From: Candidatus Omnitrophota bacterium
GTDB taxonomy: Bacteria > Omnitrophota > Gorgyraeia > Gygaellales > Profunditerraquicolaceae
DNA length: 52,881 nt
Direction of reading: 5' to 3'
Assembly (NCBI GenBank): GCA_042577285.1
Contig: JBHPDM010000004.1
Coordinates: forward strand, 1-52,881
A program made the translations under genes and the position numbers. The notes beneath the pieces are model-generated. The model worked only from the letters and a program-made list of their open reading frames with translations, searched no databases and was not told the DNA's origin. Shown in pieces: positions 7,437 through 41,056 of the stretch. How positions within the stretch are numbered: position 1 is the first letter of the stretch; the number at the start of each line of letters is the position of its first letter.

Positions 7437-7437
7437 A

Positions 7438-15534: not shown

Positions 15535-15569
15535 GATTCTAAGTCCTTTCTTTACAAAATAATTCTATA

Positions 15570-15813: not shown

Positions 15814-15846
15814 ATTTTCATCCCCCTTTCTTCGGAATTTGCTTCA

Positions 15847-25008: not shown

Positions 25009-25034
25009 AATAACCCTATTATAACATCCTCAAA

Positions 25035-25065
25035 TAAAAAAGCCCAACGAAAATGTCAGGCTTTT
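25035..25065 (-). terminator. Intrinsic terminator after the peptidoglycan-binding protein gene
   Basis: AAGCCTGAC/GTTGGGCTT stem followed by T6. Confidence 0.7.
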
Positions 25066-25095
25066 CAATAATAATCGGATCAAACCTCCTTAAGA

Positions 25096-26028: not shown

Positions 26029-27225
26029 TCAAATGCGCCTAATATCAGGAAAGCGCAGGTTTATGATTAAAAAGAATAATCCGCAAATCGCGCCGCCCAA
26101 TGCCACTGTCAGGGGAGCGCCTATTGCCTCTGCCAGGCTTCCCGCAAGTAGGTTACCGAAAGGCATGATCCCGGCAAAGGTAAACATGAAAGCGCTCATC
26201 ACCCTGCCTCTTACTTCATCCGGAGAGAGCCTCTGCAGCAGGCTATTGATTATCGCGGTAGTCGTCACCCCAGCCCAGCCTAATAATACCAAAAAACCCA
26301 AAGAAAATAAATAACTTTTTGAAAGCGAAAATAATATCAGGGAAATTGAAAATGTGATTGAGGAGAATACCAGGAGTCTTCCTTTGTGCGGGAAATCCCC
26401 CAGGCCAGCCAAGATCAGCCCGGCGATAAGCGCTCCGATACCTACCGCAGACATAAGAAATCCCAGGCCCTTCATTCCCACTAATAAAACATTGCGCGCG
26501 AAGACCGGCATCAGGATCATATAAGATATGCCGAAGAGACTGGTCACCCCCACCATACTGATCAATATAAGTATGGCGCGGTGGCGCCTGATAAACTCAA
26601 GCCCCTCGGCCAGATCCTTCGACAAGGAATTTTTAGCGGCCCCCATCCTGCCGCTATCTATCCTGATCGCCAGAAGTGCCACGATCATCGCCAGGAAACT
26701 TATTCCGTTTATGTAGAAACAACCGCTCATGCCGATAGTAGCCACCAGGATCCCGGCAAGGGCAGGACCGATCATCCGGCTGGAATTAAAAGCGACCGCA
26801 TTAAGCGCCACTGCATTCAATAGATACCTCTTGCCTACCAGCTCTACTATTATCGCTTGGCGGCTTGGGGCATCAAATGCCATCACCACGCCGCTTAGAA
26901 GAGCAATAAACATGATGTGCGGGACCCTGACTATCTGCAGATGAGTCAGAGCCGCCAGAATAAAAGCCAGACACATGAAGACGGTCTGGGTAAAAAGCAG
27001 AATACTCCTCTTATTCATCCTGTCGGCGGCCACTCCGCCGAATAAAGAAAGCAAAAATACCGGGATGAAACTCAAGAACCCGGTCACGCCAAGCAAAAAT
27101 TCCGAATCAGTCAATTGGAAGACCAGCCAGCTGAGAGCGATGATCTGGATCCAGGTACCGACCAATGAAACAAACATGCCGATCCAGTAGATACGGAAGT
27201 TTCTAATGCTCAGGGAGGAAAACAT
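26029..27225 (-). CDS. MFS transporter
   Basis: About 12 TMs, GGVAADRMNKR motif A, AFDAPSRQA. Confidence 0.9.
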   Translation of the reverse strand: MFSSLSIRNFRIYWIGMFVSLVGTWIQIIALSWLVFQLTDSEFLLGVTGFLSFIPVFLLSLFGGVAADRMNKRSILLFTQTVFMCLAFILAALTHLQIVRVPHIMFIALLSGVVMAFDAPSRQAIIVELVGKRYLLNAVALNAVAFNSSRMIGPALAGILVATIGMSGCFYINGISFLAMIVALLAIRIDSGRMGAAKNSLSKDLAEGLEFIRRHRAILILISMVGVTSLFGISYMILMPVFARNVLLVGMKGLGFLMSAVGIGALIAGLILAGLGDFPHKGRLLVFSSITFSISLILFSLSKSYLFSLGFLVLLGWAGVTTTAIINSLLQRLSPDEVRGRVMSAFMFTFAGIMPFGNLLAGSLAEAIGAPLTVALGGAICGLFFLIINLRFPDIRRI

Positions 27226-27226
27226 C

Positions 27227-27835
27227 TTAGGATTTAAGTGCTGCTTCTCGGCGGCAGCGCGGGCATAGGATCTTGATGCGGTCGGAACGTGCCTTTTTAG
27301 TTTCTTTTGATGGAGATGCCTCTTTTTTAGCGAGTTCCAAATCCTTCAAATAAGCAATCATCAAGGAGGGGTTTGAAAAAGAGAGCGGACCGAGGCGCTT
27401 AGCTACCCAGATTATCTGTTCATAGGGAGCGATCACCTCACCACAACATTCACAGAGCAGGAGTTTCTTTTCTACGCTCTGCTTTAACTCCTCTCTCTTT
27501 CCTGTGGTCGCCAGGTCAAACTCCTTGGAGAGCGTGATCCCCTTTTCAGTAGGACAATTGGCCTGGCACTGGCCGCAGAATATACAGGTATCCCAACTGA
27601 AAGTCAGAGTCCTTTTGGCTCCCTCGCTCCTGACTTCATCCTTAAACTCGATCGCCTTAGCGGGACACACCTGAGCGCAGGCGCCGCAGCCGATACAATC
27701 ATCATCGTGGAACTCGGGCTTACCCTTGAATCCTTCAAAAGGCTCATGCGCTTCAAAGGGAAACTTTGAGGTATACGGCCCCTTGATCAGTGCTTTGACC
27801 GCTTCCTTTAATTCTCTTAATTTCGGGTATCGCAT
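27227..27835 (-). CDS. NuoI/MbhN-like 2x[4Fe-4S] subunit with an extra Cys-rich C-terminus
   Basis: GPYTSKFPF, CIGCGACAQVCP and CIFCGQCQANCP; additional CECC and CPRC. Confidence 0.88.
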   Translation of the reverse strand: MRYPKLRELKEAVKALIKGPYTSKFPFEAHEPFEGFKGKPEFHDDDCIGCGACAQVCPAKAIEFKDEVRSEGAKRTLTFSWDTCIFCGQCQANCPTEKGITLSKEFDLATTGKREELKQSVEKKLLLCECCGEVIAPYEQIIWVAKRLGPLSFSNPSLMIAYLKDLELAKKEASPSKETKKARSDRIKILCPRCRREAALKS

Positions 27836-28176
27836 CAGCTTTTACCCTCTAATTCCTTATCCTCGGCGTATTTATCGCAAAGAGAGCCCTTCCACAACTT
27901 TACTCCTGCCCTGTGAGCGGCGCGGGAGAGCGCGTGCGCCGAAACCGGTGCTGTAAGGATCAAAAACAAAATACACAAGAGCGCCTTTATGCCTGCGGCA
28001 CTCACACCCTTAAAGAGGAATAGGCCAAAGAGGATGCTACAGGTCCCCAGGGTAACGCATTTTGTCGAAGCCTGCAGGCGGTTGTATACATCCGGGAGCC
28101 TGATCAGCCCCAGGCAGCCAAAAAGGTTGAAGGTAAGGCCGATCACTATAAATATGTAGCCGAGTATCTCACTCAT
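27835..28176 (-). CDS. MrpG/MbhC-like subunit
   Basis: GLIRLPDVYNRLQASTK and APVSAHAL; start corrected to MSEIL at 28176. Confidence 0.9.
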   Translation of the reverse strand: MSEILGYIFIVIGLTFNLFGCLGLIRLPDVYNRLQASTKCVTLGTCSILFGLFLFKGVSAAGIKALLCILFLILTAPVSAHALSRAAHRAGVKLWKGSLCDKYAEDKELEGKS

Positions 28177-28528
28177 CAAAGTTTCTTCCTTCCAGGTACT
28201 TTGCCAGGGCAAGTGTCGAGATAAAGCTCTGCAGGGCCCAGGCGATGCCGATGTCAATATACCAATCCCTGCCGGTTGCAATCCCTAATATCGCGCAGAA
28301 ACCTAAAATAAGTATGCCTAGAATATCGATAGCTACCGCCCTATCAGCAGGTGTAGGACCGCGTATGATCCGCCAGAGGCAGAAGAGCGCAGAGAAGAAA
28401 AGCACGCAAAATGCGCGCCTTAAAAATGGAGACTGCCACTCAATCACAGAAGGAAAAGCGCAATAGATCACTCCTGCCAGGGCTGCGATAAACACTAATA
28501 ATCCTATCAACCAGCGTAAGCGCCTCAT
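28169..28528 (-). CDS. MrpF/MbhB-like subunit
   Basis: RIIRGPTPADRAVAID. Confidence 0.88.
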   Translation of the reverse strand: MRRLRWLIGLLVFIAALAGVIYCAFPSVIEWQSPFLRRAFCVLFFSALFCLWRIIRGPTPADRAVAIDILGILILGFCAILGIATGRDWYIDIGIAWALQSFISTLALAKYLEGRNFDE

Positions 28529-29022
28529 TCAAATACCCTCTTTAATATGCGTTCAAAACGCGACACGATCATCTCTGTTGCCCTCTCTAGGTCCTTACTC
28601 TTGACATCTATCCAATGCACGTAAATAAAACCGCTTTCGGCATCGATATCAACGCTCATCGTGCCGGGGGTCAGAGTAATGGAATTTGCAAGGAAAGTCA
28701 AGGCAGTATCGGATTTCAAGACAGTCTTTACCTTTACGATGCCGGGATTGATCGGCAGGTCCGGGTGACTGACCCTGTAAGCAACGTCGATATTAGCCTT
28801 CAGGCACTCCCAGATAAAAACAGGAATATAATATAAGAACCAGACGTAGCGAGAGAGATGTTTAAATATATGCGGCCTCTTCACAAACATATCTCCGGTC
28901 ATAAATGCCGCAAAAGCTGCGACCAGGATCCCGACCAATAAATGTTCCAGGTCTATCGGCCAGGAGAGGAACGTCCAGACCAAAAAGGCAAGCGCAAAGA
29001 GGATCAACTGGCTTTTTCTCAT
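28525..29022 (-). CDS. MrpE/MbhA-like subunit
   Basis: INPGIVKV and LANSITLTPGT. Confidence 0.92.
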   Translation of the reverse strand: MRKSQLILFALAFLVWTFLSWPIDLEHLLVGILVAAFAAFMTGDMFVKRPHIFKHLSRYVWFLYYIPVFIWECLKANIDVAYRVSHPDLPINPGIVKVKTVLKSDTALTFLANSITLTPGTMSVDIDAESGFIYVHWIDVKSKDLERATEMIVSRFERILKRVFE

Positions 29023-30509
29023 CTTATCGCTCCGAATACCTGCCCGGCATACCCATTACCGGCCAATAAGACATCAGCTGCCGACTGGAGAAATCCCCTT
29101 ACCCCGGGGATCAGCATTAAACCGCCGAAAACACAGATCAAAGCCATGATGATCATAGATAATCTCATAAGAAACGGGACTTCTTTTACCGCCTGCAACG
29201 CCTTGTCTAATTTACCAAAAAAAGCAAACTTCTGCACCTTCATAAATGATGCCAGTGTCAGGATACTCGCCAATACCGCCAATAAGGCATAACCAATACG
29301 GTCAGCCTGAATACAGGCCAGGATGATCAGCAGCTTGCTGAAGAAACCGTTAAAGGGCGGGATACCGGCGATGGACATAGATGCTATGATATTAGTGCCT
29401 GCGGTCGCCGGCAACTTCTTGCGCAAACCACCCATCCTGCGTAGATCCCTTGTCCCGGTAGAATACTCTACGGCTCCAGAGTTAAGAAAAAGCAATGATT
29501 TAAATATCGAATGGTTAAAGAGGTGGAACAACCCGCCTAATATGCCCAGGGGCGTACCAAGGCCTATCCCGAGAATCACGTAACCGATCTGGCTGATCGA
29601 GTGATACGCCAGGAGGCGCTTGAAATCCCACTGCCCTATCGCCAGAAAAACCCCCACTAACATAGAAATAGTCCCCAGAAACATCAGTACCAGAAGCAGC
29701 TGAGGGTTAACGCCGAAGATATTAAAAAGCACCCTGATTATCGCATAGATCCCCAACACTTTGATCAAGACACCTGAGAGCATCGCTGATATCGGAGCCG
29801 GGGCAGAAGGGTGAGCATCGGGAAGCCAGGCGTGGAAGGGGACTAACGCTCCCTTTAAGCCGAAGCCGGCAAGGAATAGCACCGTTACGAAACTAACTAA
29901 TACCCCCGAGCCCTTCTCGGCCAAAACCTGTGAGATATCCGCCATATTCAGAGTAGAGGTATAACTATATAGGAGGCCTATCCCCAGAAGTATAAAACAA
30001 GATGTTACCGACCCCATGATCCCGTATTTAAATGATGCCTCAAGTTCTTCCGCCTCTGTGCCGAAGGCGACCAGGGCGTAACTTGAGATCGAAGCGATCT
30101 CTAAAAAGACAAAGAGATTAAACAGGTCTCCGGTGATGATCACGCCGTTCATCCCTGCAAGCATCAGCATAAATAGTGTATAAAACTTAGACTTATCGGT
30201 GAACTTCTCCATATACCTGACCGAGTACAGCGTCACCATTAAGCTGACCAGGCTTACCGTCACCAGCATAAAACTGGAGAGGCCGTCAAGTACCATCGAT
30301 ATACCTATAGGCGGGATCCAGCCTCCGACTTTATAGACCAAGACCTTTTGCGCGCTTACTAAAGGAATAGAATACAGCGAAAGGGCCAATAGCGCCAGCG
30401 CTGCCAGGTTACTTAATACATCCCCCAGGCCGCGCAGCCTCTTGCCAAAAAGCGAGACCAGAAAAGCTGCAGCCAAAGGTATGATCACAAAAAACGGTAT
30501 CAGCTTCAC
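29019..30509 (-). CDS. MrpD/MbhH-like antiporter subunit
   Basis: DLFNLFVFLEI, PFHAWLPDAHPSAP, KRLLAYHSISQIGY, GIPPFNGFFSK. Confidence 0.92.
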   Translation of the reverse strand: MKLIPFFVIIPLAAAFLVSLFGKRLRGLGDVLSNLAALALLALSLYSIPLVSAQKVLVYKVGGWIPPIGISMVLDGLSSFMLVTVSLVSLMVTLYSVRYMEKFTDKSKFYTLFMLMLAGMNGVIITGDLFNLFVFLEIASISSYALVAFGTEAEELEASFKYGIMGSVTSCFILLGIGLLYSYTSTLNMADISQVLAEKGSGVLVSFVTVLFLAGFGLKGALVPFHAWLPDAHPSAPAPISAMLSGVLIKVLGIYAIIRVLFNIFGVNPQLLLVLMFLGTISMLVGVFLAIGQWDFKRLLAYHSISQIGYVILGIGLGTPLGILGGLFHLFNHSIFKSLLFLNSGAVEYSTGTRDLRRMGGLRKKLPATAGTNIIASMSIAGIPPFNGFFSKLLIILACIQADRIGYALLAVLASILTLASFMKVQKFAFFGKLDKALQAVKEVPFLMRLSMIIMALICVFGGLMLIPGVRGFLQSAADVLLAGNGYAGQVFGAIR

Positions 30510-30844
30510 CCTCTTAACCTCCGGATCTTAGTGATATCAAAAGTGCCGTATTTCTCGTAGATCCTTATTGCGATCGCAACCAATAAGGCTGTGGTCGCCA
30601 GGCCTATGACGATAGCGGTCAGGATCAACGCCTGCGGCAGGGGATCTACCATATTCGCGACTATCTCACCCTCAGCCAGTATAGGCGCCCTGCCATGGGA
30701 GCGGTAGGCGACCAAGATAAAGAAAAGATTTACCGCATACTCGATGATCCCCAGACCGATAATGATCTTGATGATATTCCTCTTTCTTAATACACAGAAG
30801 AGGCCGATAGAAAACAGGATAAAACACAATACATATTCGCTCAT
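30506..30844 (-). CDS. MrpC/MbhG-like subunit
   Basis: DPLPQALILTAIVIG. Confidence 0.92.
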   Translation of the reverse strand: MSEYVLCFILFSIGLFCVLRKRNIIKIIIGLGIIEYAVNLFFILVAYRSHGRAPILAEGEIVANMVDPLPQALILTAIVIGLATTALLVAIAIRIYEKYGTFDITKIRRLRG

Positions 30845-31290
30845 TCTTCTTTTCCTGACGCCCTGAATAAGATCAGAGCTGCAAAGATAGCAAAGAGTCC
30901 CGCCCCGACCTTAAGCGATATAGCAATATTAGCTAGAGGAATAAAACCGGCACTAAAGAGTTTAAATGGTTCACCCTTATCGGCAAAAAAGTTCAGGAAG
31001 AAGTAGCCGCCGGCAAAACCCAAGAGTGCTATTGATAAAAACATCACTGCGCCCAGGCTTTCAACAAAAGAAGCGCGCGCCTGACTTAACTTTTTAAGCA
31101 CTGTCTCCCTGCCAAAAGCCAGCATCAGATGGATAAAAGAGAGCGCGATGATCACCCCTCCGGCAAATCCCCCTCCCGGAGAAATATGCCCGTGCAGGAC
31201 TATATAAATTCCATAAAGTAGGATTATCCCCACGGTAAGCTTAGTCACCGTCTTTACGATCAGGGTCATTCCTCTTTCAGATCTCTTCAT
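30841..31290 (-). CDS. MrpB/MbhF-like subunit
   Basis: HGHISPGGGFAGG. Confidence 0.92.
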   Translation of the reverse strand: MKRSERGMTLIVKTVTKLTVGIILLYGIYIVLHGHISPGGGFAGGVIIALSFIHLMLAFGRETVLKKLSQARASFVESLGAVMFLSIALLGFAGGYFFLNFFADKGEPFKLFSAGFIPLANIAISLKVGAGLFAIFAALILFRASGKEE

Positions 31291-31805
31291 CGCTTGATCC
31301 TTCCCACTCTTCTGACCACCGCTAACACTCCCATCACCGCGGTAAATAATATAGTCGCCTCACCCAAGGTATCGTAGGCCCTAAAATCCAGGATCACCGA
31401 GCTGACCAGGTTTGTGGCGCCAGTTTTGGCAAGGCCGTTGCGTATGTACTCTCCCGCTACCCTCATGATCGGAGCGCCGAACCTGGGCAACTCCTGCAAG
31501 GCAAAGTAGGCGCAGATCAAAAAGAGGCCGATAAAAGCGAAGGTGGAGAAAGTATTAAAATGCCAGCGCCCGTCTTTAAGTAACGGCAGGTCCTTCTTGA
31601 TCGTGGCCCGGATCAGGATGATCAGGCAGAGGATCTCGACCACCAGCTGTGCAATCGCCAGGTCCGGCGCCTTCAGAACAAGAAAAGCCATCGACAACCC
31701 TAATCCGGCAGCGCCTACAGCGATCACGCTTGAGAGCAGGTCTTCGATCGCAACCGCCGCAACCGCCGCAATAATCATGAACAATAAGATGATATTAAGT
31801 TCCAT
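31287..31805 (-). CDS. Fused MbhD (DUF4040) + MbhE-like subunit
   Basis: APDLAIAQLVVE and NLVSSVILDFRAYDTLGE; start corrected to MELN at 31805 (TAATG overlap). Confidence 0.88.
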   Translation of the reverse strand: MELNIILLFMIIAAVAAVAIEDLLSSVIAVGAAGLGLSMAFLVLKAPDLAIAQLVVEILCLIILIRATIKKDLPLLKDGRWHFNTFSTFAFIGLFLICAYFALQELPRFGAPIMRVAGEYIRNGLAKTGATNLVSSVILDFRAYDTLGEATILFTAVMGVLAVVRRVGRIKR

Positions 31806-33463
31806 TATTTTAATATAATAAAGGTAAAGAATAACCCCAGCATACCTAATAGACACCAGACCATATAAGTAGGAAGCACTCCGTTATGCAGATACTGGAA
31901 TACTCCGGAAAGAGAAAAAACAAAGCGCTTGCCCTGGGTATAGATATCAAATAGACCCGCCTCTGCCCTGGCATATATCGCACGTAAAACCTTAAGCTCC
32001 TTTATGCTGTTGTAAAATTCTGTCCCACTGACCATTTTGTGCTCGACCTCAGTGGTCTCGGCACCGGTAAATGGCGCATCCCTGCGCAGGGTAGGCTTTA
32101 TTGCTTTTAACCTAAATATCAATACTCCCAGGACCAGCCCGATCACGATCAAGGCCGTAGATAACCCGGCATACCAGGTGCCATTAAAGACTACCCCTTC
32201 TACTGCCGGAAGGATAAAATATCTAAGCGGCAACTGCCGCGCAAATACACCGAAGAATACGCATATCGCTGCTAATACAGCTGCCGGCAACCACATCTGC
32301 CAGGGGACCTCGCTGATCCGCTTTCTCTCTCTTGAGGCTTCACCCAGGAATGCGGCATGGATCAACTTCATAAAACTTGCCAAAGTAAGGCCTGAACCGA
32401 ACATCGCCGCTACCAGGCAGATCACCGTAACCGGCCCCATACCGTTAAGCGTTAGCCTGCCGATCAATCCCTGATAGACCATCCACTTTGAAACAAAACC
32501 ATTAAAAGGCGGAACCCCGGATATCGATAGAGCAGCGATCAAGCAGCAGATATAGGTGATCGGCATCGCCCTGCCTAAACCGCCTAATTCATCGAGCTCC
32601 GTTGTCTTTGTACGGTATTCGACATTACCGGCAGTAAAAAATAGACACGACTTATAGATCGCATGGTTGAGCATATGAAACATTCCGCCGGCTATACCGA
32701 TCGGTATCCCTGTGCCTATACCTAATATCATGTATCCGACCTGTGAGACGGCGTGATACCCTAAGAGCCGCTTCATATTATGCTGCACCAGGGCCATCAT
32801 CACCGCCGCGATTATGGTAAATGCTCCGATCAGCATGAGAAATATGCGTATCCCCTCGTTCATCGTAAAGATATGTAAGGATACGCGCGCCAAAAGATAG
32901 ATCCCCAGAAGTTTATCTAGGGAAGCGGGTAGAAAAGCCACTACCGGAACGGGGGCATCTTTTGCGCAATCAGGGATCCAGGAATGAAATGGCATCGCCC
33001 CTGCCTTGGCAAAACAGGCCAAAGCGACACAAATATAAGCAAAGAGCGCGAGATTATTATCAAGTGCCAGCTTGACCGCATCCATCTGCAGGCTGCCGGA
33101 TAAAGAATAGATTATACCTATACCCAAAAGCATCAGCGCGTCGGTTCCCCCGACGATGATAAAGGTCTTCTTTGCAGTAGCCGAAGCCTCATCACCCATA
33201 TTGATCAACAGATACAGCGTTATACCTAAGAAACCCCAGAGGATCAAGAGCAGAAGCAGGTTATTAGATAGCGCTACCCCGATCGAAGCGATCGCAGTAA
33301 GAACTATATAAGAATAATACTGCCAGGGTGAATCCTTATCCCTTATGAACTTAGATGAATAAAGAATGGTTAAGATGCTAAAAAGGCCTATAGCCATGAC
33401 CACGAAACCGTTCAGTGAATCCAGCTTAAGCCAGGGATATAATGAAGAGATAAAATCAGTCAT
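31805..33463 (-). CDS. NuoL/MrpA-like antiporter subunit with a C-terminal lateral-helix extension
   Basis: PFHSWIPD, KRLLGYHAVSQVGY, GVPPFNGFVSKW and a C-terminal LHNGVLPTY. Confidence 0.9.
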   Translation of the reverse strand: MTDFISSLYPWLKLDSLNGFVVMAIGLFSILTILYSSKFIRDKDSPWQYYSYIVLTAIASIGVALSNNLLLLLILWGFLGITLYLLINMGDEASATAKKTFIIVGGTDALMLLGIGIIYSLSGSLQMDAVKLALDNNLALFAYICVALACFAKAGAMPFHSWIPDCAKDAPVPVVAFLPASLDKLLGIYLLARVSLHIFTMNEGIRIFLMLIGAFTIIAAVMMALVQHNMKRLLGYHAVSQVGYMILGIGTGIPIGIAGGMFHMLNHAIYKSCLFFTAGNVEYRTKTTELDELGGLGRAMPITYICCLIAALSISGVPPFNGFVSKWMVYQGLIGRLTLNGMGPVTVICLVAAMFGSGLTLASFMKLIHAAFLGEASRERKRISEVPWQMWLPAAVLAAICVFFGVFARQLPLRYFILPAVEGVVFNGTWYAGLSTALIVIGLVLGVLIFRLKAIKPTLRRDAPFTGAETTEVEHKMVSGTEFYNSIKELKVLRAIYARAEAGLFDIYTQGKRFVFSLSGVFQYLHNGVLPTYMVWCLLGMLGLFFTFIILK

Positions 33464-34649
33464 CTAAGCCCATTTCTTTCTTTAATCGCTCGGTCTTCTC
33501 CTGCGATAACTTTATCAGATCCCAACCGTTGAGCACCTTCTCGTCAGTTGCCTTATTGATCACCGCCACCCTCTCGGTACAGCAATAACAGGGATCGACC
33601 GCCGCCAGGGTGATCGTGGCATCAGATATCGTCCCGCCCACGGCAGCATCTTTATTGGAAGCCACATTCATATAGCTTGGGGCGCGAATCTTATGCCTGA
33701 CCGGACGGTTTGTCCCGTCAGACTTAACATAGTGAAAACATTCACCGCGGGGTGCCTCAACATGGCCAATACCCTCTCCGGGAGGGATATCTTTTACATT
33801 GGCGTCAATCTCGCCCTTCGGCATCTTATCCAGGCACTGCTTGATTATACTGACCGATTCATAAAGCTCTAAGATCCTTACCACTGCCTTGGCAAATACG
33901 TCCCCCTCCTGCTGCACGATCACATTCCACTTCACCCTATCGTATGCTCCGTAGGGATCATCCTTACGCACATCAATATTTAATCCGGAGGCCCTTCCTG
34001 TCGGCCCCTCCACACACCAATCGATCGCCTGCTGTTTAGTCAAAATACCGATTCCTTTAAGCCGGGTGTGGATCACCGGGTCATCCAGAACCGCACCCTT
34101 AAACATATCCGTTACCGGAACAAGGTCATCGAGGATCTTCTTTAGCGCAGGTATATCCTCATCTCTTATATCACGCCGCACACCACCCGGCTTCATCATC
34201 GCGTAGTGATTGCGATTTCCGGTGATCAACTCGAACATATCCAGCACCGGCTCACGGTAACGCCAGGCCCACATCCATACTGTATTATATCCGATAAAGT
34301 GGCCTGCTAATCCCAACCATAAAAGGTGGCTGTGGATCCTTTCAAGCTCCGCAATAATAGTACGGATATAAAGCGCCCTCTCCGGGACCTTGATCTTAGC
34401 CAGATCCTCGACGGCATTAACATAAGCAAAGGGGTGGCTGGTGGAGCAGATCCCGCAGATACGCTCAACCAAAAAGGCGACCTGATCCCAATGCTTAGAT
34501 TCAGAAAGCTTCTCTATTCCCCGGTGCATATAACCGATGACTATATCTATATCCTTAACCCGCTCCCCATCTACATAAAGACGGAAGAACTCCGGCTCCT
34601 CCTGCAGCGGATGATAAGGACCTATAGGTACTATTACTCTGTGTGACAT
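33456..34649 (-). CDS. Group 4 [NiFe]-hydrogenase large subunit (MbhL-like)
   Basis: L1 motif ERICGICSTSH, L2 motif DPCYCCTER followed by a C-terminal extension, and N-terminal GPYHPLQEEP. Confidence 0.9.
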   Translation of the reverse strand: MSHRVIVPIGPYHPLQEEPEFFRLYVDGERVKDIDIVIGYMHRGIEKLSESKHWDQVAFLVERICGICSTSHPFAYVNAVEDLAKIKVPERALYIRTIIAELERIHSHLLWLGLAGHFIGYNTVWMWAWRYREPVLDMFELITGNRNHYAMMKPGGVRRDIRDEDIPALKKILDDLVPVTDMFKGAVLDDPVIHTRLKGIGILTKQQAIDWCVEGPTGRASGLNIDVRKDDPYGAYDRVKWNVIVQQEGDVFAKAVVRILELYESVSIIKQCLDKMPKGEIDANVKDIPPGEGIGHVEAPRGECFHYVKSDGTNRPVRHKIRAPSYMNVASNKDAAVGGTISDATITLAAVDPCYCCTERVAVINKATDEKVLNGWDLIKLSQEKTERLKKEMGLDD

Positions 34650-34652
34650 ATC

Positions 34653-35096
34653 TTAATCCTTGTCCTGGTCATGCCTTAAAGGGTACTTTCCCTTCGGCCA
34701 GTCATCGACCAATAAAAGATGAGTTAAGTTCGGATGGCCCTCGAAGTCGATCCCTAAAAGCTCCCACATCTCCCGCTCGATCCATTCCGCTCCTCTGATT
34801 ATCGGGGTAATCGACGTGATCTGGGGATGCTTTTTGTCTGCGATCAGGGTGCGCAGACTAATCATCTTACCCGTTGCATCATGCGAGAAATGATAGAGTA
34901 TCTCGATGCCCTGCGGCGTATCAGTTCCTGAGGCAATCACAAAGCGCGCCCCTATATCCCTGAAGATAAATCGCGCCGCTTCCGGTATATCCTTAGGATC
35001 AAAGCCGATATAGATCCTAAGAGGATTATGCTCGTAGAACTCAAGGATCCTCTCTGCGAATTTATCCTTTATCCTGCTGATAACATCTTTCATCAC
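34653..35096 (-). CDS. NuoC/MbhK-like subunit
   Basis: SITPIIRGAEWIEREMWELLGIDFEGHPNL. Confidence 0.9.
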   Translation of the reverse strand: MMKDVISRIKDKFAERILEFYEHNPLRIYIGFDPKDIPEAARFIFRDIGARFVIASGTDTPQGIEILYHFSHDATGKMISLRTLIADKKHPQITSITPIIRGAEWIEREMWELLGIDFEGHPNLTHLLLVDDWPKGKYPLRHDQDKD

Positions 35097-35518
35097 TTTT
35101 TTCCTTGCAGCTTCTGGATCAATTTCACAACTCCGGCGATCATCGCCTCAGGCTTTGGCGGACAACCCGGGATGTAGGCGCTCACCGGGACTATATCATC
35201 GACATTGCAGGGGCTGTTATAGGAATCCTTAAACATCACTCTTCCGCAGGCGCAGCTTCCCACAGCTATCACCAGGCAGGGCTGAGGCGCCTGTTCATAA
35301 AGCTTCTTTAGCCTCTCCTTTGTCTTCATGTTGGGGACACCGGTGACTAAAAGCACATCGGCATGCCGCACGCTTCCTACCAGGACTATCCCGAACCTCT
35401 CTACGTCAAACCTCGGAGTCAAAAGGTCGAGGATCTCGATATCGCAGTTATTACACGGTGAGCAGGCAGCGTGAAATACCCAGATCGATTTAGTAAGTGC
35501 TTTAAGTTTTGTATTCAT
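35093..35518 (-). CDS. NuoB/MbhJ-like hydrogenase small subunit
   Basis: CNNCDIE, RHADVLLVTG, GSCACG, PGCPPKPE. Confidence 0.92.
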   Translation of the reverse strand: MNTKLKALTKSIWVFHAACSPCNNCDIEILDLLTPRFDVERFGIVLVGSVRHADVLLVTGVPNMKTKERLKKLYEQAPQPCLVIAVGSCACGRVMFKDSYNSPCNVDDIVPVSAYIPGCPPKPEAMIAGVVKLIQKLQGKK

Positions 35519-35519
35519 T

Positions 35520-36431
35520 TTATAATCCTAATAGGGATAAAATAACCGCTACAACAGCCAAAAAAGTGACCGGTCCCCAGAAAAACTTCAATGCCTGGTC
35601 GATCCGCAATCTCGGGTTAGTATTCTTGATCAGAATGATTACCACTAATAATGCTACGTACTTGCCGGCTAATGCCAAGGGGCTTAAATTACCGGCCCAA
35701 AATAAACTGATCAAAAATAGCGGCATCGTATAAAGCATCAGCGCCTTAGTCAATTTAAACACAGCTAAGGGCAGGCCGGAATATTCGATTAAAGTCCCTC
35801 CCATTATCTCCTGCTCTGCTTCAGCGGCATCAAAGGGAACAAGGCCCAGCTTCGCCTGCATACAGAGTATTGCTACGATAAAAGCGATGATTCCGGAGAG
35901 CGAAGCAGCATTGGAACCTGCGCTGATCTGATGAGTTACAATCGAACCTATCCGGATCGCTCCTGCCGACCTTACGATCACAGCGATCATAGCTAATATA
36001 AATGGCAGCTCGTATGCAAGCACCATCTTCATCTCGCGCGAGACGCCCACAGAGGCGAGGGGATTACCGGATGATGAGCCGCCGATGATCAGGGCGATCG
36101 CCGGCACCACTAAAAGGTAGATCAACACGATCAGATCACCACTGAAACCCTCTAGAGGCGAGATCAATCCTAACCCTAAGATCGTCGCCACCAAAGTAAC
36201 GCTCAAAAGCCCGAGATATGGCGCAAATAAAAAGGTAAGCCTTGATCCCTGCGGCAGGATCGTCTCCTTACCGGTAAGCTTGACGATATCGATAAAATTC
36301 TGATACCAGGGAGGGCCAACGCGCCACTGGACGCGAGCGGTTACCTTTCTATCCACCCAGCCGGATATTAGGCCGATCACCGCGCTAAATAAGAAACCCG
36401 GAAATATCAAATAATTGAATAATAACTTCAT
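35520..36431 (-). CDS. NuoH/MbhM-like membrane subunit
   Basis: DRKVTARVQWRVGPP, PFDAAEAEQEIMGGTLIEYSG, NPRLRIDQ. Confidence 0.92.
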   Translation of the reverse strand: MKLLFNYLIFPGFLFSAVIGLISGWVDRKVTARVQWRVGPPWYQNFIDIVKLTGKETILPQGSRLTFLFAPYLGLLSVTLVATILGLGLISPLEGFSGDLIVLIYLLVVPAIALIIGGSSSGNPLASVGVSREMKMVLAYELPFILAMIAVIVRSAGAIRIGSIVTHQISAGSNAASLSGIIAFIVAILCMQAKLGLVPFDAAEAEQEIMGGTLIEYSGLPLAVFKLTKALMLYTMPLFLISLFWAGNLSPLALAGKYVALLVVIILIKNTNPRLRIDQALKFFWGPVTFLAVVAVILSLLGL

Positions 36432-36919
36432 TTCTTCTTAATCTGAATATCCTCTTTTGACCATTTACGGGAATGCACGGCCAAGCTCTCCCCGACAAAA
36501 TAAATATTTTCCTGCGGGTTCTCTTCGACATCTTTTATCTCTATCGCCTTTTCAGGACAGCTGCCTATACATTTAGGCTGTTTACGCGTAACTCCAGCGC
36601 AATAATCACAGCTTGAATCCAGGTATGGAATAAAATCAGGAAATATCGTACCAAAGGGACAGGCGATCGAACAGGATTTACAACTTGTACAGCGCATCTT
36701 ATAACGCTTCAGGATCCCGTCTTCCTGTTTTTCCAATGCATCCCTGTAACAGGCATTCACGCAAGGAGCTTCTTCGCAGTGGCGGCAGAAGAGGGCCAAT
36801 GTCGCGTATTCTCTTAAAGAAGTAATGCCGTTGTTCTGCGGGTGATAGAAGTAATCGCAAGCTGCTTTACATTCGAGGCAGCGATCACACAGGTCTAAGT
36901 CGATAAATAGGCGCTTCAT
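36428..36919 (-). CDS. 4Fe-4S polyferredoxin (HydN/CooF-like)
   Basis: Four Cys clusters including CRHCEEAPCVNAC and CTSCKSCSIACPFG. Confidence 0.85.
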   Translation of the reverse strand: MKRLFIDLDLCDRCLECKAACDYFYHPQNNGITSLREYATLALFCRHCEEAPCVNACYRDALEKQEDGILKRYKMRCTSCKSCSIACPFGTIFPDFIPYLDSSCDYCAGVTRKQPKCIGSCPEKAIEIKDVEENPQENIYFVGESLAVHSRKWSKEDIQIKKK

Positions 36920-36920
36920 C

Positions 36921-37736
36921 TTAATCCCAGATCTCCGGTATATCCCTTAACTGTTCGTATGTAAAGACCGGACCGTCCTTACAGGCATAGTATTTGCCGA
37001 CTCGGCAATGGCCGCACTTCCCCAACCCGCAGGACATATTCTTCTCCATAGACAGATAGATATCCTCAGGCTTATATCCTAGTTCCAGCAACTTAAGGGT
37101 AGAGAACTTCATCATGATCGGTGGCCCGCAGACTATCGCCACCGACTTCTTCAGGTTCACGGGAAGGTCCTTCAGGATCGTCGTAACTAATCCTACATTG
37201 CCCCGCCAGCCCTTCTCACCCAGATCAACGGTAGTGACTAGATCCACCTTCTTCTTCCTCGCCCACCTAGGCAGGGAATCTTTATAAACGATATCCTGCG
37301 GGCTGCGCGCTCCGTAGCGCAGCACCACCTTATTGAATCTATCGATCTCACCAAAGAGAGCAAATAATAAAGAACGCAGGGGAGCAAGGCCAACACCTCC
37401 GCCGACGATCAAGACATCTTTTCCGGCAAACTTATCTAACGGATACCCCGCACCATACGGCCCCCTGATGCCTACTAAAGCTTTCTTCTTAAGACCGTGC
37501 ATGATATCTGTGACCCTGCCGGCCTTCATGATCGTGACTTCGATATTATCCTTTATCTTAGGGTCTGATGAAGGCGTAAAGGGTGCCTCGCCTACCCCCG
37601 GGACTGTGATCTCGATAAACTGCCCGGTTTTAAAACTAAAGTCTTCCTTAGGCTTAAGTACGAAGGTCTTGATCGTCGGGGTCTCAACCTTCACCTGTTC
37701 GATTGTCGCCTCAAATGGTTTATAGATATTCTTCAT
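36921..37736 (-). CDS. AsrB/HydG-like FAD/NAD(P)-binding subunit
   Basis: RGPYG, GGGVGLAPLRS, VCGPPIMM and the 2Fe-2S motif EKNMSCGLGKCGHC...CKDGPV. Confidence 0.9.
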   Translation of the reverse strand: MKNIYKPFEATIEQVKVETPTIKTFVLKPKEDFSFKTGQFIEITVPGVGEAPFTPSSDPKIKDNIEVTIMKAGRVTDIMHGLKKKALVGIRGPYGAGYPLDKFAGKDVLIVGGGVGLAPLRSLLFALFGEIDRFNKVVLRYGARSPQDIVYKDSLPRWARKKKVDLVTTVDLGEKGWRGNVGLVTTILKDLPVNLKKSVAIVCGPPIMMKFSTLKLLELGYKPEDIYLSMEKNMSCGLGKCGHCRVGKYYACKDGPVFTYEQLRDIPEIWD

Positions 37737-38797
37737 CCGCTTATGCGCAGCTTATTCTCCAGATCCTTCAACACTTCTCTGATGTCGATCTTCCCCGGGC
37801 AGACCTCGATACATCTGCCGCAGCCGCAGCAGGCAGGTAACCCTAGATTATCTATAAAGAAATCGAATTTCTTCAAGAATCTGTTGCGCAGCCTCTGAGT
37901 CCGCGACTTTAGGGGATTTGCTCCGCCTGCTACCCGGGCAAAATTTGCGTACTGGCAGGAATCCCAGACCTTAAACCGCCCGTTCTTCTTGTCCTGCGAC
38001 TCATCCACCAACAAGAAACAATGACAGGTATCGCAGATCATATTGCAGCCGCCGCACTCTACGCAATCCGCCATAAACTTCTCCCAGGTATCCAGAGAAT
38101 ACCCCTGCCTGACCAGTCTCTGGACGGAATTCTTAGAGACCAGTCCCTGCGCATCGATATGCTGCTTGAGGCGTTCAAGGAACTTTTCTCTCTTTTCGCG
38201 GCGGGCTGAGATCTGCGCACCCCTGGCAGGCACAAAGTATTCCTCGTGCTTCTTTAAAAGCTCGCTACCTCTTTCTGAGCCGACCTCAACCAGATAACCG
38301 TCGTTTAAGGGGGTAAGATTTAAATCAAAATCCTCAACCGGCGATGGCTTGATATCCCAGGCAAGGCAGTGGCAGACTTCCCTGAATCCCGTACAATCGC
38401 CTGAGACGAGAATCGTATTCTCCCTCCTTGCGCGGTAGAAGGTATCCTCCTCGACGCCCTCTAAGAACACGAAATCCTGGATCTTGTGAGCCGCGAGGTC
38501 GCAATTCTTAAGCCCAAAGATGATCGTCTTATCCAGATCAACGACCCCTTTCTCTTTGACGTCAAAATACTCGGATACCTCTTCCTTAGGCAGCGTGAAG
38601 AAATTCTTCAGCGGTTCAGTGGCACGGTAGGGATTAAAGATGATGGAGTCATCCTCAGCCAGTTTCTTGTAAGAATAATCTTTCTCCCCGGCGGGATTCT
38701 CTTGGCGCAAGACTGGGGCGAAGACCCGGTAGGACTCTTTGAGCCAGCTGACTAACTCAGCGAACTGTTGTCTGTTAATATAGAAAGTCGTAGGCAT
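37733..38797 (-). CDS. AsrA/HydB-like 4Fe-4S subunit
   Basis: GLKNCD, CVECGGCNMICDTCHCF, WDSC, CCGCGRCIEVCP. Confidence 0.88.
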   Translation of the reverse strand: MPTTFYINRQQFAELVSWLKESYRVFAPVLRQENPAGEKDYSYKKLAEDDSIIFNPYRATEPLKNFFTLPKEEVSEYFDVKEKGVVDLDKTIIFGLKNCDLAAHKIQDFVFLEGVEEDTFYRARRENTILVSGDCTGFREVCHCLAWDIKPSPVEDFDLNLTPLNDGYLVEVGSERGSELLKKHEEYFVPARGAQISARREKREKFLERLKQHIDAQGLVSKNSVQRLVRQGYSLDTWEKFMADCVECGGCNMICDTCHCFLLVDESQDKKNGRFKVWDSCQYANFARVAGGANPLKSRTQRLRNRFLKKFDFFIDNLGLPACCGCGRCIEVCPGKIDIREVLKDLENKLRISG

Positions 38798-38838: not shown

Positions 38839-38860
38839 CTTTGTGAAAATAATCACAAAG
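38839..38860. promoter_or_regulatory. Palindromic operator (Rex- or CRP/FNR-type) upstream of the hydrogenase operon
   Basis: CTTTGTGA-AAATAA-TCACAAAG has perfect 8-bp arms. It matches TGTGA-N6-TCACA exactly and TTGTGAA-N4-TTCACAA with one mismatch. Confidence 0.7.
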
Positions 38861-38889: not shown

Positions 38890-38918
38890 AAATTACTACG
38901 GATGCCTCTTATTGTCAA
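38890..38918 (-). promoter_or_regulatory. Candidate promoter of the hydrogenase operon
   Basis: TTGACA-N17-TAATTT. Confidence 0.5.
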
Positions 38919-38929
38919 GCAAAATTAAT

Positions 38930-39412
38930 CTAGTCTTCCTCAGGCTCCCCCTTAGGCTCAGCAGCGGGCCTTACCAGGCGCTCTTTAACCAAGGCGCTGA
39001 CTATTTTTCCATCTGCCTCGCCTGCGACCTTAGCATTTACCTCCTTCATCACCTTGCCCATATCCTTCAAATCTATTGCCCCGAGGGCAGTGATCACCTC
39101 TTCGATTATCTCTTTGATCTTTTCAGGCGGCAACTCCGCAGGAAGATATGCCTTTAGAATCTCAAGCTCCCTTGCCTCTTTATCTACCAGGTCCTGCCTG
39201 TTGCCCTTCTTAAACTGCTCGATAGAATCCTGGCGCGCCTTGACCTGTTTCCTGATCACCAAAACTACTTCTTTATCGTCAAGGCCCTTCTTTTTCTTGG
39301 CAGTGGCCACATTATTAAGTTCTGCGCGCAGAAAACTTAAGGCCGAACTCTTTAAGGCGTCCTTTGACTTCATCGCTTCCTTGTAATCACTAAAGATCTT
39401 CTCCTCGAGCAT
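38930..39412 (-). CDS. GatB/YqeY domain protein
   Basis: KEAMKSKD...RQDSIEQFKKGNRQDL...DMGKVMK pattern. Confidence 0.92.
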   Translation of the reverse strand: MLEEKIFSDYKEAMKSKDALKSSALSFLRAELNNVATAKKKKGLDDKEVVLVIRKQVKARQDSIEQFKKGNRQDLVDKEARELEILKAYLPAELPPEKIKEIIEEVITALGAIDLKDMGKVMKEVNAKVAGEADGKIVSALVKERLVRPAAEPKGEPEED

Positions 39413-39425
39413 GGCTACCTCCTCC

Positions 39426-40325
39426 TCAAAATGAAAAACAATTCTTAAATCGGTTAAGCCTCGCCTTTAAATCTTTGATTGTAAGCCGCGCAGTTCTCTC
39501 CACTCCGAATCCCTCGATATTAAAGGAGGCGGCGACTGTGCCAAGGGCAAGCGCCCTCTTAATACTTACTGCGGTTATGCTCTTGTCTTGACTTAAAGAA
39601 CCCATAAATCCTCCGGCAAATGTATCACCTGCTCCGGTGGGATCGATCACCTTAGCGATTGGAAATGCGGGCAGGGAAAGGATAAATCTGTCGCTGTAAA
39701 ACAGGACCCCGTGCTGGCCCTTCTTGACCAGGACCATCTTCGGCCCCAATGAGCGCAGGCGTTTTGCCGCCCTGACTAAATTGCTCTCTCCGGAGAGATC
39801 CCTTGCCTCCTGGTCATTGGCCACATAGATATCCACCTTCTTTAATATGCGCAGTAAAGCTTTTCTTTTGTGTTTTATCCAGTAATTCATGCTGTCCAGC
39901 GCAATAAGATCCGGCGAGCGCACCTGAGAGAGCAGATCGCGCTGGATGTCGGGATCGACATTGGCAAGAAACACATAATTTATATTCTTTTGCCTCTGGG
40001 TGATCTTCGGCTTAAAGGAGAGTAATACTCCCAGCTGGGTGCGCAAGGTAACAGCAGTATTCAAGTCCCCTGAATATTTACCCTCCCACCTGAAACTCTT
40101 ATCAGGCAACTGCATCAACGAACTCAAATCTATTCCCCTGCGGCGCAGAAGATCGATATGCCTTCGGGGAAAATCCTCTCCTACGGCGGCAACCAGATTT
40201 ACCTTGTTAAACAGGCGCGCCGCCATGGCAAAGTGGGCTGCCGAACCGCCCAGCATATCCTTACGCGCTCCCGCAGGTGTCCTTACCGTATCAAGCGCGA
40301 CTGTACCTAAAACTAATACACTCAT
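39426..40325 (-). CDS. PfkB-family carbohydrate/nucleoside kinase
   Basis: GGSAAHFAMAA and DPTGAGDTFAGG. Confidence 0.92.
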   Translation of the reverse strand: MSVLVLGTVALDTVRTPAGARKDMLGGSAAHFAMAARLFNKVNLVAAVGEDFPRRHIDLLRRRGIDLSSLMQLPDKSFRWEGKYSGDLNTAVTLRTQLGVLLSFKPKITQRQKNINYVFLANVDPDIQRDLLSQVRSPDLIALDSMNYWIKHKRKALLRILKKVDIYVANDQEARDLSGESNLVRAAKRLRSLGPKMVLVKKGQHGVLFYSDRFILSLPAFPIAKVIDPTGAGDTFAGGFMGSLSQDKSITAVSIKRALALGTVAASFNIEGFGVERTARLTIKDLKARLNRFKNCFSF

Positions 40326-41056
40326 CTAATAAATAATAATGTGATTATTGCGATAAAAAAACAATAATATCCAAAGAGATACAGCTTCCCGTTTTTTATG
40401 ACTGTTTTTAACATCCGAAGCGCGATCAACCCGGTAAGGAAACTAAATACCAGGCCGACGGATAAATCTATATTCCAGATCAGGCTTATCTTTCTAGTCT
40501 CAAGCAGGACCGCCCCTAAGACAGCCGGGATCGAGGCCAGGAACGATAACCTGAATGCAGCATCTCTATTTAGTTTTCGAAATAATAGGGCGCAGATCGT
40601 GATGCCGGAGCGAGAGATCCCGGGAATAATCGCAACACCCTGGGCGATCCCTAAAATAAAAGAATCCCCGCTCCTGGGAGAATCTTTACGCTGGTCCATG
40701 AATCTACGGGATAGTAAAAGGATCGCTCCTGTAAAAACTAATGCGGCGCTGACCAGGATAGGAGAACTGAACAGGCTTTCAAAGAAATCCTTGCCGGCAA
40801 TTGCGATCGCTCCGGTGATCAAGCTGACGATGAAGATAAACTTAAGCAGCTTTAAACTGCGCATTGCCAGCAATATATCCTTAAAGAAGAATATCACCAG
40901 AGCCAAGACCGTACCTAAATGTAGGATAACCACGGTCTCTACCTCCTGTCCATTCATACCAAAAATCCTCTGCAGGATCACCAGGTGTCCGGAGCTGCTT
41001 ACAGGAAGAAATTCAGTCAGGCCCTGGACTATACCTAATACTGCTGACTTCAACAT
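40322..41056 (-). CDS. uppP: Undecaprenyl-diphosphate phosphatase
   Basis: GIVQGLTEFLPVSSSGHL and PGISRSG. Confidence 0.95.
   Translation of the reverse strand: MLKSAVLGIVQGLTEFLPVSSSGHLVILQRIFGMNGQEVETVVILHLGTVLALVIFFFKDILLAMRSLKLLKFIFIVSLITGAIAIAGKDFFESLFSSPILVSAALVFTGAILLLSRRFMDQRKDSPRSGDSFILGIAQGVAIIPGISRSGITICALLFRKLNRDAAFRLSFLASIPAVLGAVLLETRKISLIWNIDLSVGLVFSFLTGLIALRMLKTVIKNGKLYLFGYYCFFIAIITLLFIR

Follow-up and report, generated by a model that had tools for sequence, protein, structure and literature searches.

A Hun-type group 4 [NiFe]-hydrogenase operon of Omnitrophota with a near-obligate AsrAB-like module, a predicted Rex operator and a putative NAD(P)H-to-H2 role

Gene content of the operon

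We analyzed a 52,881-nucleotide (nt) stretch of DNA from a Candidatus Omnitrophota bacterium (GCA_042577285.1, contig JBHPDM010000004.1, positions 1-52,881), here called the window, and describe a group 4 [NiFe]-hydrogenase operon within it that also encodes an AsrA/AsrB-like pair. The operon consists of 16 minus-strand open reading frames (ORFs), from a first start at 38797 down to a last stop at 27227, and most of its neighboring genes overlap by 4 nt or stand 1-3 nt apart. An earlier inspection of the DNA (the sequence-only reading) had drawn exactly these limits and counted 14 genes, where 16 ORFs are present and its own list of components also sums to 16. We assigned subunit families from Pfam and NCBIfam profile matches, which agree with the make-up proposed there: AsrA- and AsrB-like subunits, a polyferredoxin, NuoH/B/C/D-like subunits, antiporter-like subunits, MbhD/E, Mrp subunits and a NuoI-like subunit. 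The genes are the same, and in the same order, as those of hunA-P, a 16-subunit operon named from genomes by Glass et al. in 2021 (bioRxiv 10.1101/536078 / Environ Microbiol), and we use the Hun names throughout.

The first three genes encode a putative electron-input module. The product of hunA (37733-38797, minus strand, like all genes of the operon) is a HydB/AsrA-like iron-sulfur (Fe-S) subunit of 354 amino acids (aa) with 16 cysteines (Pfam Fer4_22, 4.3e-28), which scored higher with the NCBIfam model for ShyB (178 bits) than with those for HydB (158) and AsrA (132), all under the family (equivalog) cut-offs. It aligns over roughly its full length to the beta subunit of Pyrococcus furiosus soluble hydrogenase I (SHI; 9NEZ_B, 1.5e-39), and the Cys-rich cluster motifs are aligned and conserved. 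The 271-aa HydG/AsrB-like flavoprotein encoded by hunB (36921-37736) carries the Pfam domains FAD_binding_6, NAD_binding_1 and DHODB_Fe-S_bind, scored under the cut-off of the NCBIfam AsrB model and matched SHI gamma (9NEZ_C) at 2.4e-54. Its motifs GGGVGLAP, CGPP and C-x4-C-x2-C-x7-C (Cys236/241/244/252, for a [2Fe-2S] cluster) predict sites for FAD, NAD(P)H and [2Fe-2S]. HunC (36428-36919; 163 aa) is a HycB/CooF-like ferredoxin in which 16 cysteines form four CxxC...C groups, that is, four [4Fe-4S] motifs; its nearest solved chains are HycB4/HycB3 of the hydrogen-dependent CO2 reductase (7QV7) and HycB of Escherichia coli formate hydrogenlyase (FHL; 7Z0S_B).

The hydrogenase core follows, beginning with a further overlap at the hunC/hunD junction. 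It comprises a NuoH/MbhM-like membrane subunit (hunD, 35520-36431; NADHdh, 1e-60), a NuoB-like hydrogenase small subunit with Cys19/22/25 and Cys119-Pro-Pro (hunE, 35093-35518; Oxidored_q6, 8.9e-27), a NuoC-like subunit (hunF, 34653-35096; Complex1_30kDa, 4e-26) and the 397-aa, NuoD-like [NiFe] large subunit (hunG, 33456-34649; Complex1_49kDa and NiFeSe_Hases). Since the translation of HunG contains both ERICGICSTSH and DPCYCCTER, followed by a 37-aa C-terminal extension, all four Ni-ligating cysteines are kept, and the enzyme is not of the Cys-deficient type of the membrane-bound sulfur reductase MBS, as the sequence-only reading had also concluded. The nearest solved chains of HunG are MbhL (6CFW_L, 7.6e-86) and then HycE (7Z0S_E, 6.8e-78).

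The remaining genes encode the membrane arm and the last Fe-S subunit. Two antiporter-like subunits, HunH (31805-33463; 552 aa; Proton_antipo_M, 2.7e-59) and the MrpD/NuoL-like HunL (29019-30509; 496 aa; Proton_antipo_M, 6.4e-69; NCBIfam MrpD-type models), are accompanied by a fused MbhD/MbhE-like subunit (hunI, 31287-31856; Pfam MbhD and MbhE), MnhB/MrpB-like HunJ (30841-31290; MnhB, 3.3e-26), NuoK/MrpC-like HunK (30506-30844; Oxidored_q2, 4e-28), MrpE-like HunM (28525-29022; MNHE, 3.9e-45), MrpF-like HunN (28169-28528; MrpF_PhaF, 9.2e-17) and MrpG-like HunO (27835-28281). In HunO the PhaG_MnhG_YufB match (9.5e-26) spans residues 44-123, and the real start of the gene probably lies downstream of the listed TTG. 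The last gene, hunP (27227-27835), encodes a 202-aa HycF/NuoI-like subunit with two [4Fe-4S] motifs (Pfam Fer4 families) and a Cys-rich C-terminal extension, and its match to HycF (7Z0S_F, 1.4e-19) is better than that to MbhN (6CFW_N, 7e-13). The extension (residues 128-194) holds five additional cysteines (C128, C130, C131, C191 and C194), which may form an additional metal site or a docking element.

With its four ligating cysteines in the L1/L2 motifs and its NuoB-, NuoC-, NuoH- and NuoI-like partners, the enzyme belongs to the group 4 [NiFe] hydrogenases. It falls outside complex I, since HunG keeps its Ni ligands, unlike the Ni-ligand-free NuoD with its quinone site, and since NuoE, NuoF and NuoG are missing from the operon; the sole Complex1_51K domain in the window is that of RnfC. 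It also falls outside the formate hydrogenlyases, since the scanned ORFs of the window (nearly all of those of at least 100 aa) include no molybdopterin protein.

Linkage of the input module to the hydrogenase core

A survey of relatives with one genome per GTDB species gave 80 loci, nearly all labeled Omnitrophota; some carry the record labels Planctomycetota, Brocadiaceae, Margulisiibacteriota or Patescibacteria and may lie outside the phylum. The order AsrA-AsrB-ferredoxin-NuoH-B-C-D-antiporter was kept in every locus with a long enough contig, a recurrence that puts it well past chance. We then counted co-occurrence in 401 Omnitrophota species genomes, using at least 37% identity for the HydB-like clade and at least 65% identity for the large-subunit clade, and found the former in 102 genomes, the latter in 104 and both in 101. 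The AsrAB-like pair thus essentially never occurs in Omnitrophota without a group 4 core (101/102 genomes). The large subunit gene lies 3057-4080 nt downstream of the HydB-like gene and on the same strand in 88 of these 101, while the 13 remaining genomes, in which the two genes are on separate contigs, probably reflect assembly breaks.

The membrane arm was found in three variants: the form of the window, a form with an extra antiporter-like gene and a short form without Mrp subunits (eight loci). The input module, consisting of the AsrAB-like pair and the ferredoxin, is constant in all three, the Mrp-less short form included.

The source genome, a 1.25-Mb, 62-contig, 78%-complete metagenome-assembled genome, offers HunAB no other partner. 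Its only [NiFe] large subunit is HunG, a group 4 protein, and its only Fer4_22 protein above the cut-off is HunA; group 3 alpha (large) and delta (small) subunits are not encoded with HunAB, and we found no [FeFe] hydrogenase and no NIR_SIR domain or AsrC sulfite reductase in this 78%-complete genome, which sets the operon apart from AsrABC. The sequence-only reading had reported no separate group 3b large subunit in the window and had allowed that the pair might lack synteny with group 4 hydrogenases or serve a group 3b enzyme or AsrC elsewhere in the genome; its report extends to the whole incomplete genome, and neither of these outcomes was observed. In relatives, group 3b enzymes use a separate and more distant HydB/HydG pair: the second HydB-like class in Omnitrophota (27-35% identity) belongs to canonical group 3b operons, for which one example taken as a control (locus L089) has the order HydB-HydG-small-large-HycI.

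At least 44 of the 401 genomes carry a second, AsrAB-less group 4 hydrogenase with 11 subunits, among them at least 32 that have the Hun-type enzyme as well. At loci L088 (931-10299; G197:C6), L086 and L087 its order is three NuoL/M/N-like genes, NuoJ, NuoK, a 110-aa ORF and NuoB, C, D, H and I, with no donor module. Its large subunit, translated from the L088 copy, contains RVCGICSHSH and DPCFSCTDR and hence intact Ni-ligating cysteines. Since at least 32 genomes keep both, the Hun-type and the module-less enzymes appear to do different jobs.

Predicted promoter and Rex-type operator

Upstream of hunA we read a predicted sigma-70-type promoter directly from the sequence (38890-38918, minus strand; TTGACA-17 nt-TAATTT), which our consensus promoter scan did not list because the -10 hexamer is below the scan rule. 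A predicted Rex-type operator (38841-38858), TTGTGAAAATAATCACAA on the plus strand and TTGTGATTATTTTCACAA when read on the minus strand (38858-38841), follows the -10 hexamer and precedes the ATG of hunA by 43 nt. It agrees with the Rex consensus TTGTGAA-N4-TTCACAA (PMC2883068, PMC6391272) at 17 of 18 positions. The pattern TGTGA-N6-TCACA occurs once in the 1.25-Mb genome, at this promoter; no site in the genome differs from it by a single mismatch, and the count of 30 sites with two mismatches is about what background would give.

Among 73 relatives, 28 have a box with at most two mismatches upstream of asrA, against an expectation of about 0.005 per locus, and 27 of the 28 perfect boxes within 1.11 Mb of the relatives' loci lie 14-63 nt upstream of asrA. 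The source genome encodes a Rex protein on another contig (C9, 22902-23531), with a winged-helix N-terminus and a Rossmann domain (Put_DNA-bind_N and CoA_binding), on the same strand as hypE and about 950 nt downstream of it. In six relatives rex precedes asrA: immediately and on the same strand in five, and at a distance of 5 kb in the other. We also considered a CRP/FNR-type protein as the binder of the box, and regard it as less likely than Rex, since no HTH_Crp_2 match above the cut-off was found in the genome. Rex control, as predicted, suggests that the operon is induced when NADH accumulates, which would fit an NADH-disposing, H2-evolving role.

Comparison with described hydrogenases

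The architecture of the operon is not new, since it was noted in 2019 (PMC6349859) and named Hun in 2021 (10.1101/536078), and a link to NADP(H) was made for a related cluster type in 2026 (PMC13582414). The window operon is a further member of the named Hun family, and the idea of NAD(P)H as the donor has partial precedents in print. Glass et al. found Hun in Atribacteria, Firmicutes, Omnitrophica, Elusimicrobia, Bacteroidetes and Kosmotoga, described HunAB as AsrAB-like with AsrC absent, and classed HunG as group 4g yet distant from other 4g sequences; they also pointed out that its CGIC/CYCC motif pair is unusual, other group 4 enzymes having CxxC (10.1101/536078). The window operon likewise ends with the NuoI-like gene and lacks AsrC, and its HunG carries the identical CGIC/CYCC pair. 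We found no structural difference from the published operon, and only the reading of the donor differs: ferredoxin in the published work and NAD(P)H in ours.

Matheus Carnevali et al. described an "enigmatic" group 4 hydrogenase of Saganbacteria RX5A in 2019, placed its closest relatives in Omnitrophica and Zixibacteria, and proposed that its extra genes form an oxidoreductase module (PMC6349859). That cluster combines, as the window operon does, a group 4 core and Mrp-like subunits with asrA-, asrB- and cooF-like genes, but it adds a molybdopterin (FdhH/NapA-like) protein, which none of the Omnitrophota operons that we examined has. By eye, we recognized no Fdh-like or molybdopterin ORF upstream of asrA in relatives (for 10 of the 14 loci, this covers the nearest ORF only). 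The 2026 study in Front Microbiol concerns group 4b-type clusters that encode homologs of SHI beta and gamma and a Cys/Sec-less Fdh; its AlphaFold 3 models place the SHI-gamma homolog on a branched group 4 Fe-S network, and it proposes that H2, NADP(H) and an unknown substrate are coupled by bifurcation or confurcation (PMC13582414). These clusters share with the window operon the SHI-beta/gamma homologs encoded with a group 4 [NiFe] hydrogenase, but they have an Fdh-like third branch, whereas the window operon pairs a full Mrp set with no more than two ends, HunB and HunG. Surveys of Omnitrophota list a "4g, Mrp-linked" enzyme and assume ferredoxin as its partner (PMC8542988, PMC10066038).

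The membrane-bound hydrogenase (MBH) of P. furiosus (6CFW; HydDB group 4d) provides the closest solved large subunit and shares with Hun an MbhJ/K/L/M/N-type core and Mrp-derived membrane subunits, here of the MrpB/C/D/E/F/G and MbhD/E families. MBH has no flavoprotein or HycB-like subunit and takes ferredoxin directly, whereas the window operon has both; it has one antiporter-like subunit rather than two, and its gene order is unlike that of Hun. Since hunA-C are invariably attached, Hun also does not match the group 4d plan of 14 subunits with direct ferredoxin docking and no donor module. P. furiosus SHI (group 3b; 9NEZ/9NF0) comes from Xiao et al. 2025, here taken from its citation in PMC13582414. 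Its beta and gamma subunits, the NADPH-oxidizing half, are the full-length homologs of HunA and HunB, while the window operon lacks the group 3 alpha and delta subunits and has the module joined to a membrane group 4 core through a HycB-like wire. In E. coli FHL (7Z0S; group 4a), the path from the donor enzyme through HycB, HycF and HycG to HycE is mirrored by the Hun order, with FdhF as the donor where Hun has a flavoprotein pair and with an arm of HycC/HycD only where that of Hun is Mrp-type. The wiring of Hun resembles that of FHL because HunC is nearest to HycB and HunP is nearer to HycF than to MbhN. Fdh3 of Thermococcus onnurineus was considered as a precedent for a HydB/HydG module and set aside, since its NAD(P) subunit is modeled on NfnI and is not HydG-like.

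What this analysis adds is the near-obligate linkage of module and core in about 100 species, the constancy of the module across membrane-arm variants, the argument from the module-less paralog, and a single-site Rex regulon with rex adjoining the operon in relatives.

Proposed electron donor and ion coupling

Several observations support NAD(P)H as the electron donor. HunA and HunB are full-length homologs of SHI beta and gamma with cluster cysteines and NAD(P) motifs intact; HunC and HunP have their best matches in HycB and HycF, which in FHL connect the donor enzyme with the hydrogenase; and the HydB-like and large-subunit clades are co-inherited, with no alternative partner for HunAB in the genome. 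The coexisting module-less hydrogenase, the single Rex box at the promoter, the maturation genes, Rnf in the window and the AlphaFold 3 models of related clusters (PMC13582414) count for the same reading. On balance, we consider it probable, though by no means assured, that Hun is a Rex-controlled, ion-coupled NAD(P)H:H+ oxidoreductase that forms one complex and mainly vents NADH as H2. We infer the single physical complex, the donor, the ion coupling and the direction from homology, gene order and Rex control, and the same applies to any preference of Hun between NADH and NADPH. At this level, our analysis supports the proposal of the sequence-only reading that one enzyme links H2 and NAD(P)(H) to ion translocation; that reading had put H2 uptake first and allowed the reverse, and it is to the reverse, H2 evolution from NADH, that Rex control points.

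In the mechanism that we propose, the 16 genes would be one operon, collinear with hunA-P, for a single complex-I-like membrane enzyme. NAD(P)H would be oxidized at the FAD of HunB (SHI-gamma/AsrB-like), and electrons would pass from its [2Fe-2S] cluster to the [4Fe-4S] clusters of HunA (SHI-beta/AsrA-like), then through the four clusters of HunC (HycB-like) and the two of HunP (HycF/NuoI-like), and finally through the proximal cluster of HunE to the [NiFe] site of HunG, where protons would be reduced to H2. The whole path would comprise about ten Fe-S clusters across HunB, A, C, P and E. The membrane arm, with its NuoH-like subunit, two antiporter-like subunits and MrpB/C/E/F/G and MbhD/E equivalents, would couple this nearly isoenergetic reaction to the movement of H+ or Na+, and may act as a reversible gear. 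At very low H2, ions would be pumped and a little energy conserved, while at higher H2 the reaction from NADH to H2 would be driven by the ion gradient that Rnf builds in oxidizing ferredoxin. Rex would repress transcription until a rising NADH/NAD+ ratio releases it, with disposal of NADH as H2 as the main direction.

Several considerations weigh against this reading. The potentials of H+/H2 and NAD(P)+/NAD(P)H are -414 mV and -320 mV, and the production of H2 from NADH is endergonic under standard conditions, with a cost of about +18 kJ/mol under 1 atm of H2. At around 10 Pa H2, with an E' of about -296 mV, the reaction is close to neutral. A low-potential donor is easier to square with a large pumping arm, and HycB-like polyferredoxins can take electrons from soluble ferredoxin too. 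A recognizable Rex box is absent in 45 of the 73 relatives, and the absences from the source genome are provisional because it is 78% complete. Rex control is also no proof of NADH use, since in Caldicellulosiruptor bescii a membrane [NiFe] hydrogenase that depends on ferredoxin is under Rex as well (PMC6391272). Glass et al. predicted ferredoxin as the electron donor to HunABC (10.1101/536078), and we found in the literature no biochemical work on Hun or its Kosmotoga copy and no structural or expression evidence for any Hun enzyme.

One alternative is a ferredoxin-dependent Mbh-type hydrogenase in which HunABC would be an extended Fe-S antenna for reduced ferredoxin, the nucleotide site of HunB would be vestigial or regulatory, and H2 evolution would pump ions as in Pyrococcus MBH. 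Ferredoxin is what the published work predicts for Hun and what HydDB gives by default for group 4g, HunG is closest to MbhL, a large pumping arm energetically suits a donor near -500 mV, and Rex regulation, as noted, extends to a ferredoxin-dependent enzyme elsewhere. We nevertheless regard this explanation as unlikely. HunB retains a complete FNR-type FAD/NAD(P)H domain and matches the NADPH-oxidizing SHI gamma at 2.4e-54, a flavoprotein is unnecessary for a ferredoxin acceptor (MBH and Ech function without such a module), the genomes with both enzymes already have a separate module-less group 4 hydrogenase to serve ferredoxin, and the module is strictly kept in about 100 species. A ferredoxin-only enzyme fits poorly with an intact nucleotide site, a strictly retained flavoprotein and a coexisting paralog, and the SHI-gamma homology, the NAD(P)H site, Rex control and the same paralog lead us to favor NAD(P)H over the published donor.

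Both donors could also meet in one enzyme, with reduced ferredoxin entering at HunC/HunP and NAD(P)H at HunB, to give either a confurcating hydrogenase or an ion-coupled ferredoxin:NAD(P)+ oxidoreductase that also vents to H2. HycB-type wires take ferredoxin in other enzymes, the related group 4b-type clusters were modeled with a branched Fe-S network for which NADP(H) bifurcation or confurcation was proposed (PMC13582414), and the organism makes both NADH and reduced ferredoxin with only this hydrogenase. The operon, however, encodes no candidate bifurcating flavin subunit (GltD/NfnB-, HdrA- or Bfu-type), its Omnitrophota form lacks the third, Fdh-like branch, and Rnf already connects ferredoxin and NAD, so that we consider such a hub quite improbable. 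It is more doubtful still that the operon encodes two enzymes that are transcribed together yet physically distinct, namely a soluble HunABC oxidoreductase of the NAD(P)H:ferredoxin type and an ordinary Mbh/Mrp hydrogenase. Adjacency alone is no proof of a complex, and hunP, the predicted docking subunit, lies about 9 kb from hunC; but the two parts are essentially never uncoupled in the 401 genomes, the hunC/hunD overlap suggests translational coupling, the hycB-first order is that of FHL, where HycB is a bound subunit, and HunC is a four-cluster HycB-type protein rather than a small soluble ferredoxin. A membrane-bound sulfhydrogenase or sulfur reductase, in which HunA would be a polysulfide-reducing site linking H2 or ferredoxin to sulfur reduction, is hardly credible: P. 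furiosus SHI, to whose beta subunit HunA is homologous, is cited in PMC8542988 as having sulfur reductase activity, but HunG has the four Ni-ligating cysteines, unlike sulfur-reducing MBS, the scanned ORFs of the operon and window include no sulfur-handling genes, and both Rex control and the presence of a flavoprotein speak for nicotinamide cofactors.

If Hun is an NAD(P)H:H+ oxidoreductase, as we favor, its presence alongside Rnf may be meaningful. A complete Rnf operon is found in the window (6648-11455, minus strand) at a distance of 16 kb from that of the hydrogenase, and the presence of AcsB in the genome shows that the Wood-Ljungdahl pathway is encoded at least in part. We tentatively raise the possibility, which we consider less likely than not, that Hun and Rnf together replace flavin-based electron confurcation by chemiosmotic means. 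Reduced ferredoxin would be oxidized by Rnf to produce NADH and an ion gradient, and Hun would spend part of this gradient to push NADH electrons uphill onto protons. If so, all the reducing equivalents of a fermenter or acetogen with a tiny genome could leave the cell as H2 through one Rex-gated hydrogenase. This would make Hun the first ion-gradient-coupled NAD(P)H:H+ oxidoreductase and a proton-reducing complex I with its NADH module drawn from a sulfhydrogenase rather than from NuoEFG.

The question of the donor matters beyond this genome. Group 4g/Hun hydrogenases are present in about a quarter of the sampled Omnitrophota species (102/401), and the literature, on which their spread beyond Omnitrophota rests, also places them in Atribacteria, Elusimicrobia, Bacteroidetes, Firmicutes, Saganbacteria and the cultured Kosmotoga. 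Metabolic reconstructions usually show them as dependent on ferredoxin. Should the donor prove to be NAD(P)H, many uncultured anaerobes would call for different models of redox balance, H2 thresholds and syntrophy, and the complex I superfamily would gain a new type of coupling site, with an NAD(P)H module acquired independently of NuoEFG.

Maturation and neighboring genes

The window also encodes a HycI-type hydrogenase maturation endopeptidase (19593-20279, minus strand; PF01750, 1.3e-17 and 4.8e-17), with the domain in the C-terminal half of the ORF, which agrees with the 37-aa C-terminal extension of HunG. A Fer4_5 iron-sulfur protein gene (20054-20512, minus strand) overlaps the upstream part of this ORF. 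We found maturation genes for HypD, HypE and a HypF C-terminal protein on contig C9, where the rex and hyp genes have the coordinates 22902-23531 (rex), 24479-25492, 31577-32674 and 32874-33992. The only HypF-like ORF near rex and hypE is 372 aa long and comprises the C-terminal Kae1-like domains alone, which may mean that the source lineage has a split or truncated HypF. In the relative used as a group 3b control, a gene just after that of the HycI-type protease (L089, 1310-2608, minus strand; G043:C9), downstream of the 3b operon, fuses a HypC/HupF domain to radical-SAM and BATS domains (HydE/BioB-like).

The Rnf operon, on the minus strand, consists of an RnfC-like gene (10082-11455), an FMN_bind subunit gene (9564-10085), RnfD (8633-9574), two Rnf-Nqr membrane subunit genes (7438-8636) and an RnfB-like gene (6648-7436), and a major facilitator superfamily (MFS) gene (11452-12708) abuts it. 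Two NAD-related genes are present in the window, for a YjeF_N protein of the NAD(P)HX epimerase type (20627-21283, minus strand) and for the quinolinate synthase NadA (48023-48943, minus strand); their presence there, like that of the Fer4_5 gene, is probably a coincidence.

The hydrogenase operon is flanked by unrelated housekeeping genes, with YqeY, PfkB, BacA and an acyl-ligase upstream and an MFS transporter, a phosphotransferase system (PTS) EIIA protein, a peptidoglycan-binding protein and GH1 downstream. The neighborhood BacA-PfkB-YqeY-[hun operon]-MFS-(EIIA)-peptidoglycan-binding protein, which in the window includes the 38930-41056 side, is kept across dozens of Omnitrophota species and suggests vertical inheritance of the hun operon at a fixed site. 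The MFS_3-family gene (26029-27225, minus strand) begins 1 nt past the hunP stop with no terminator predicted between them, and may be co-transcribed with hunP. In six short-form loci (L033, L061, L062, L071, L077 and L082) the NuoI-like gene is likewise followed by an MFS gene, of 62-64% identity.

In the short-form operon of L061, a 205-aa PhoU-domain ORF (15338-15955, plus strand), odd for a hydrogenase operon, lies between the large subunit gene and the sole antiporter-like gene. At L088, an H+-pyrophosphatase gene is found about 1.8 kb downstream of the second group 4 hydrogenase. Elsewhere in the window, the gene at 21781-23787 (minus strand) encodes a 668-aa protein with both a cyclic-nucleotide-binding and a patatin-like phospholipase domain.

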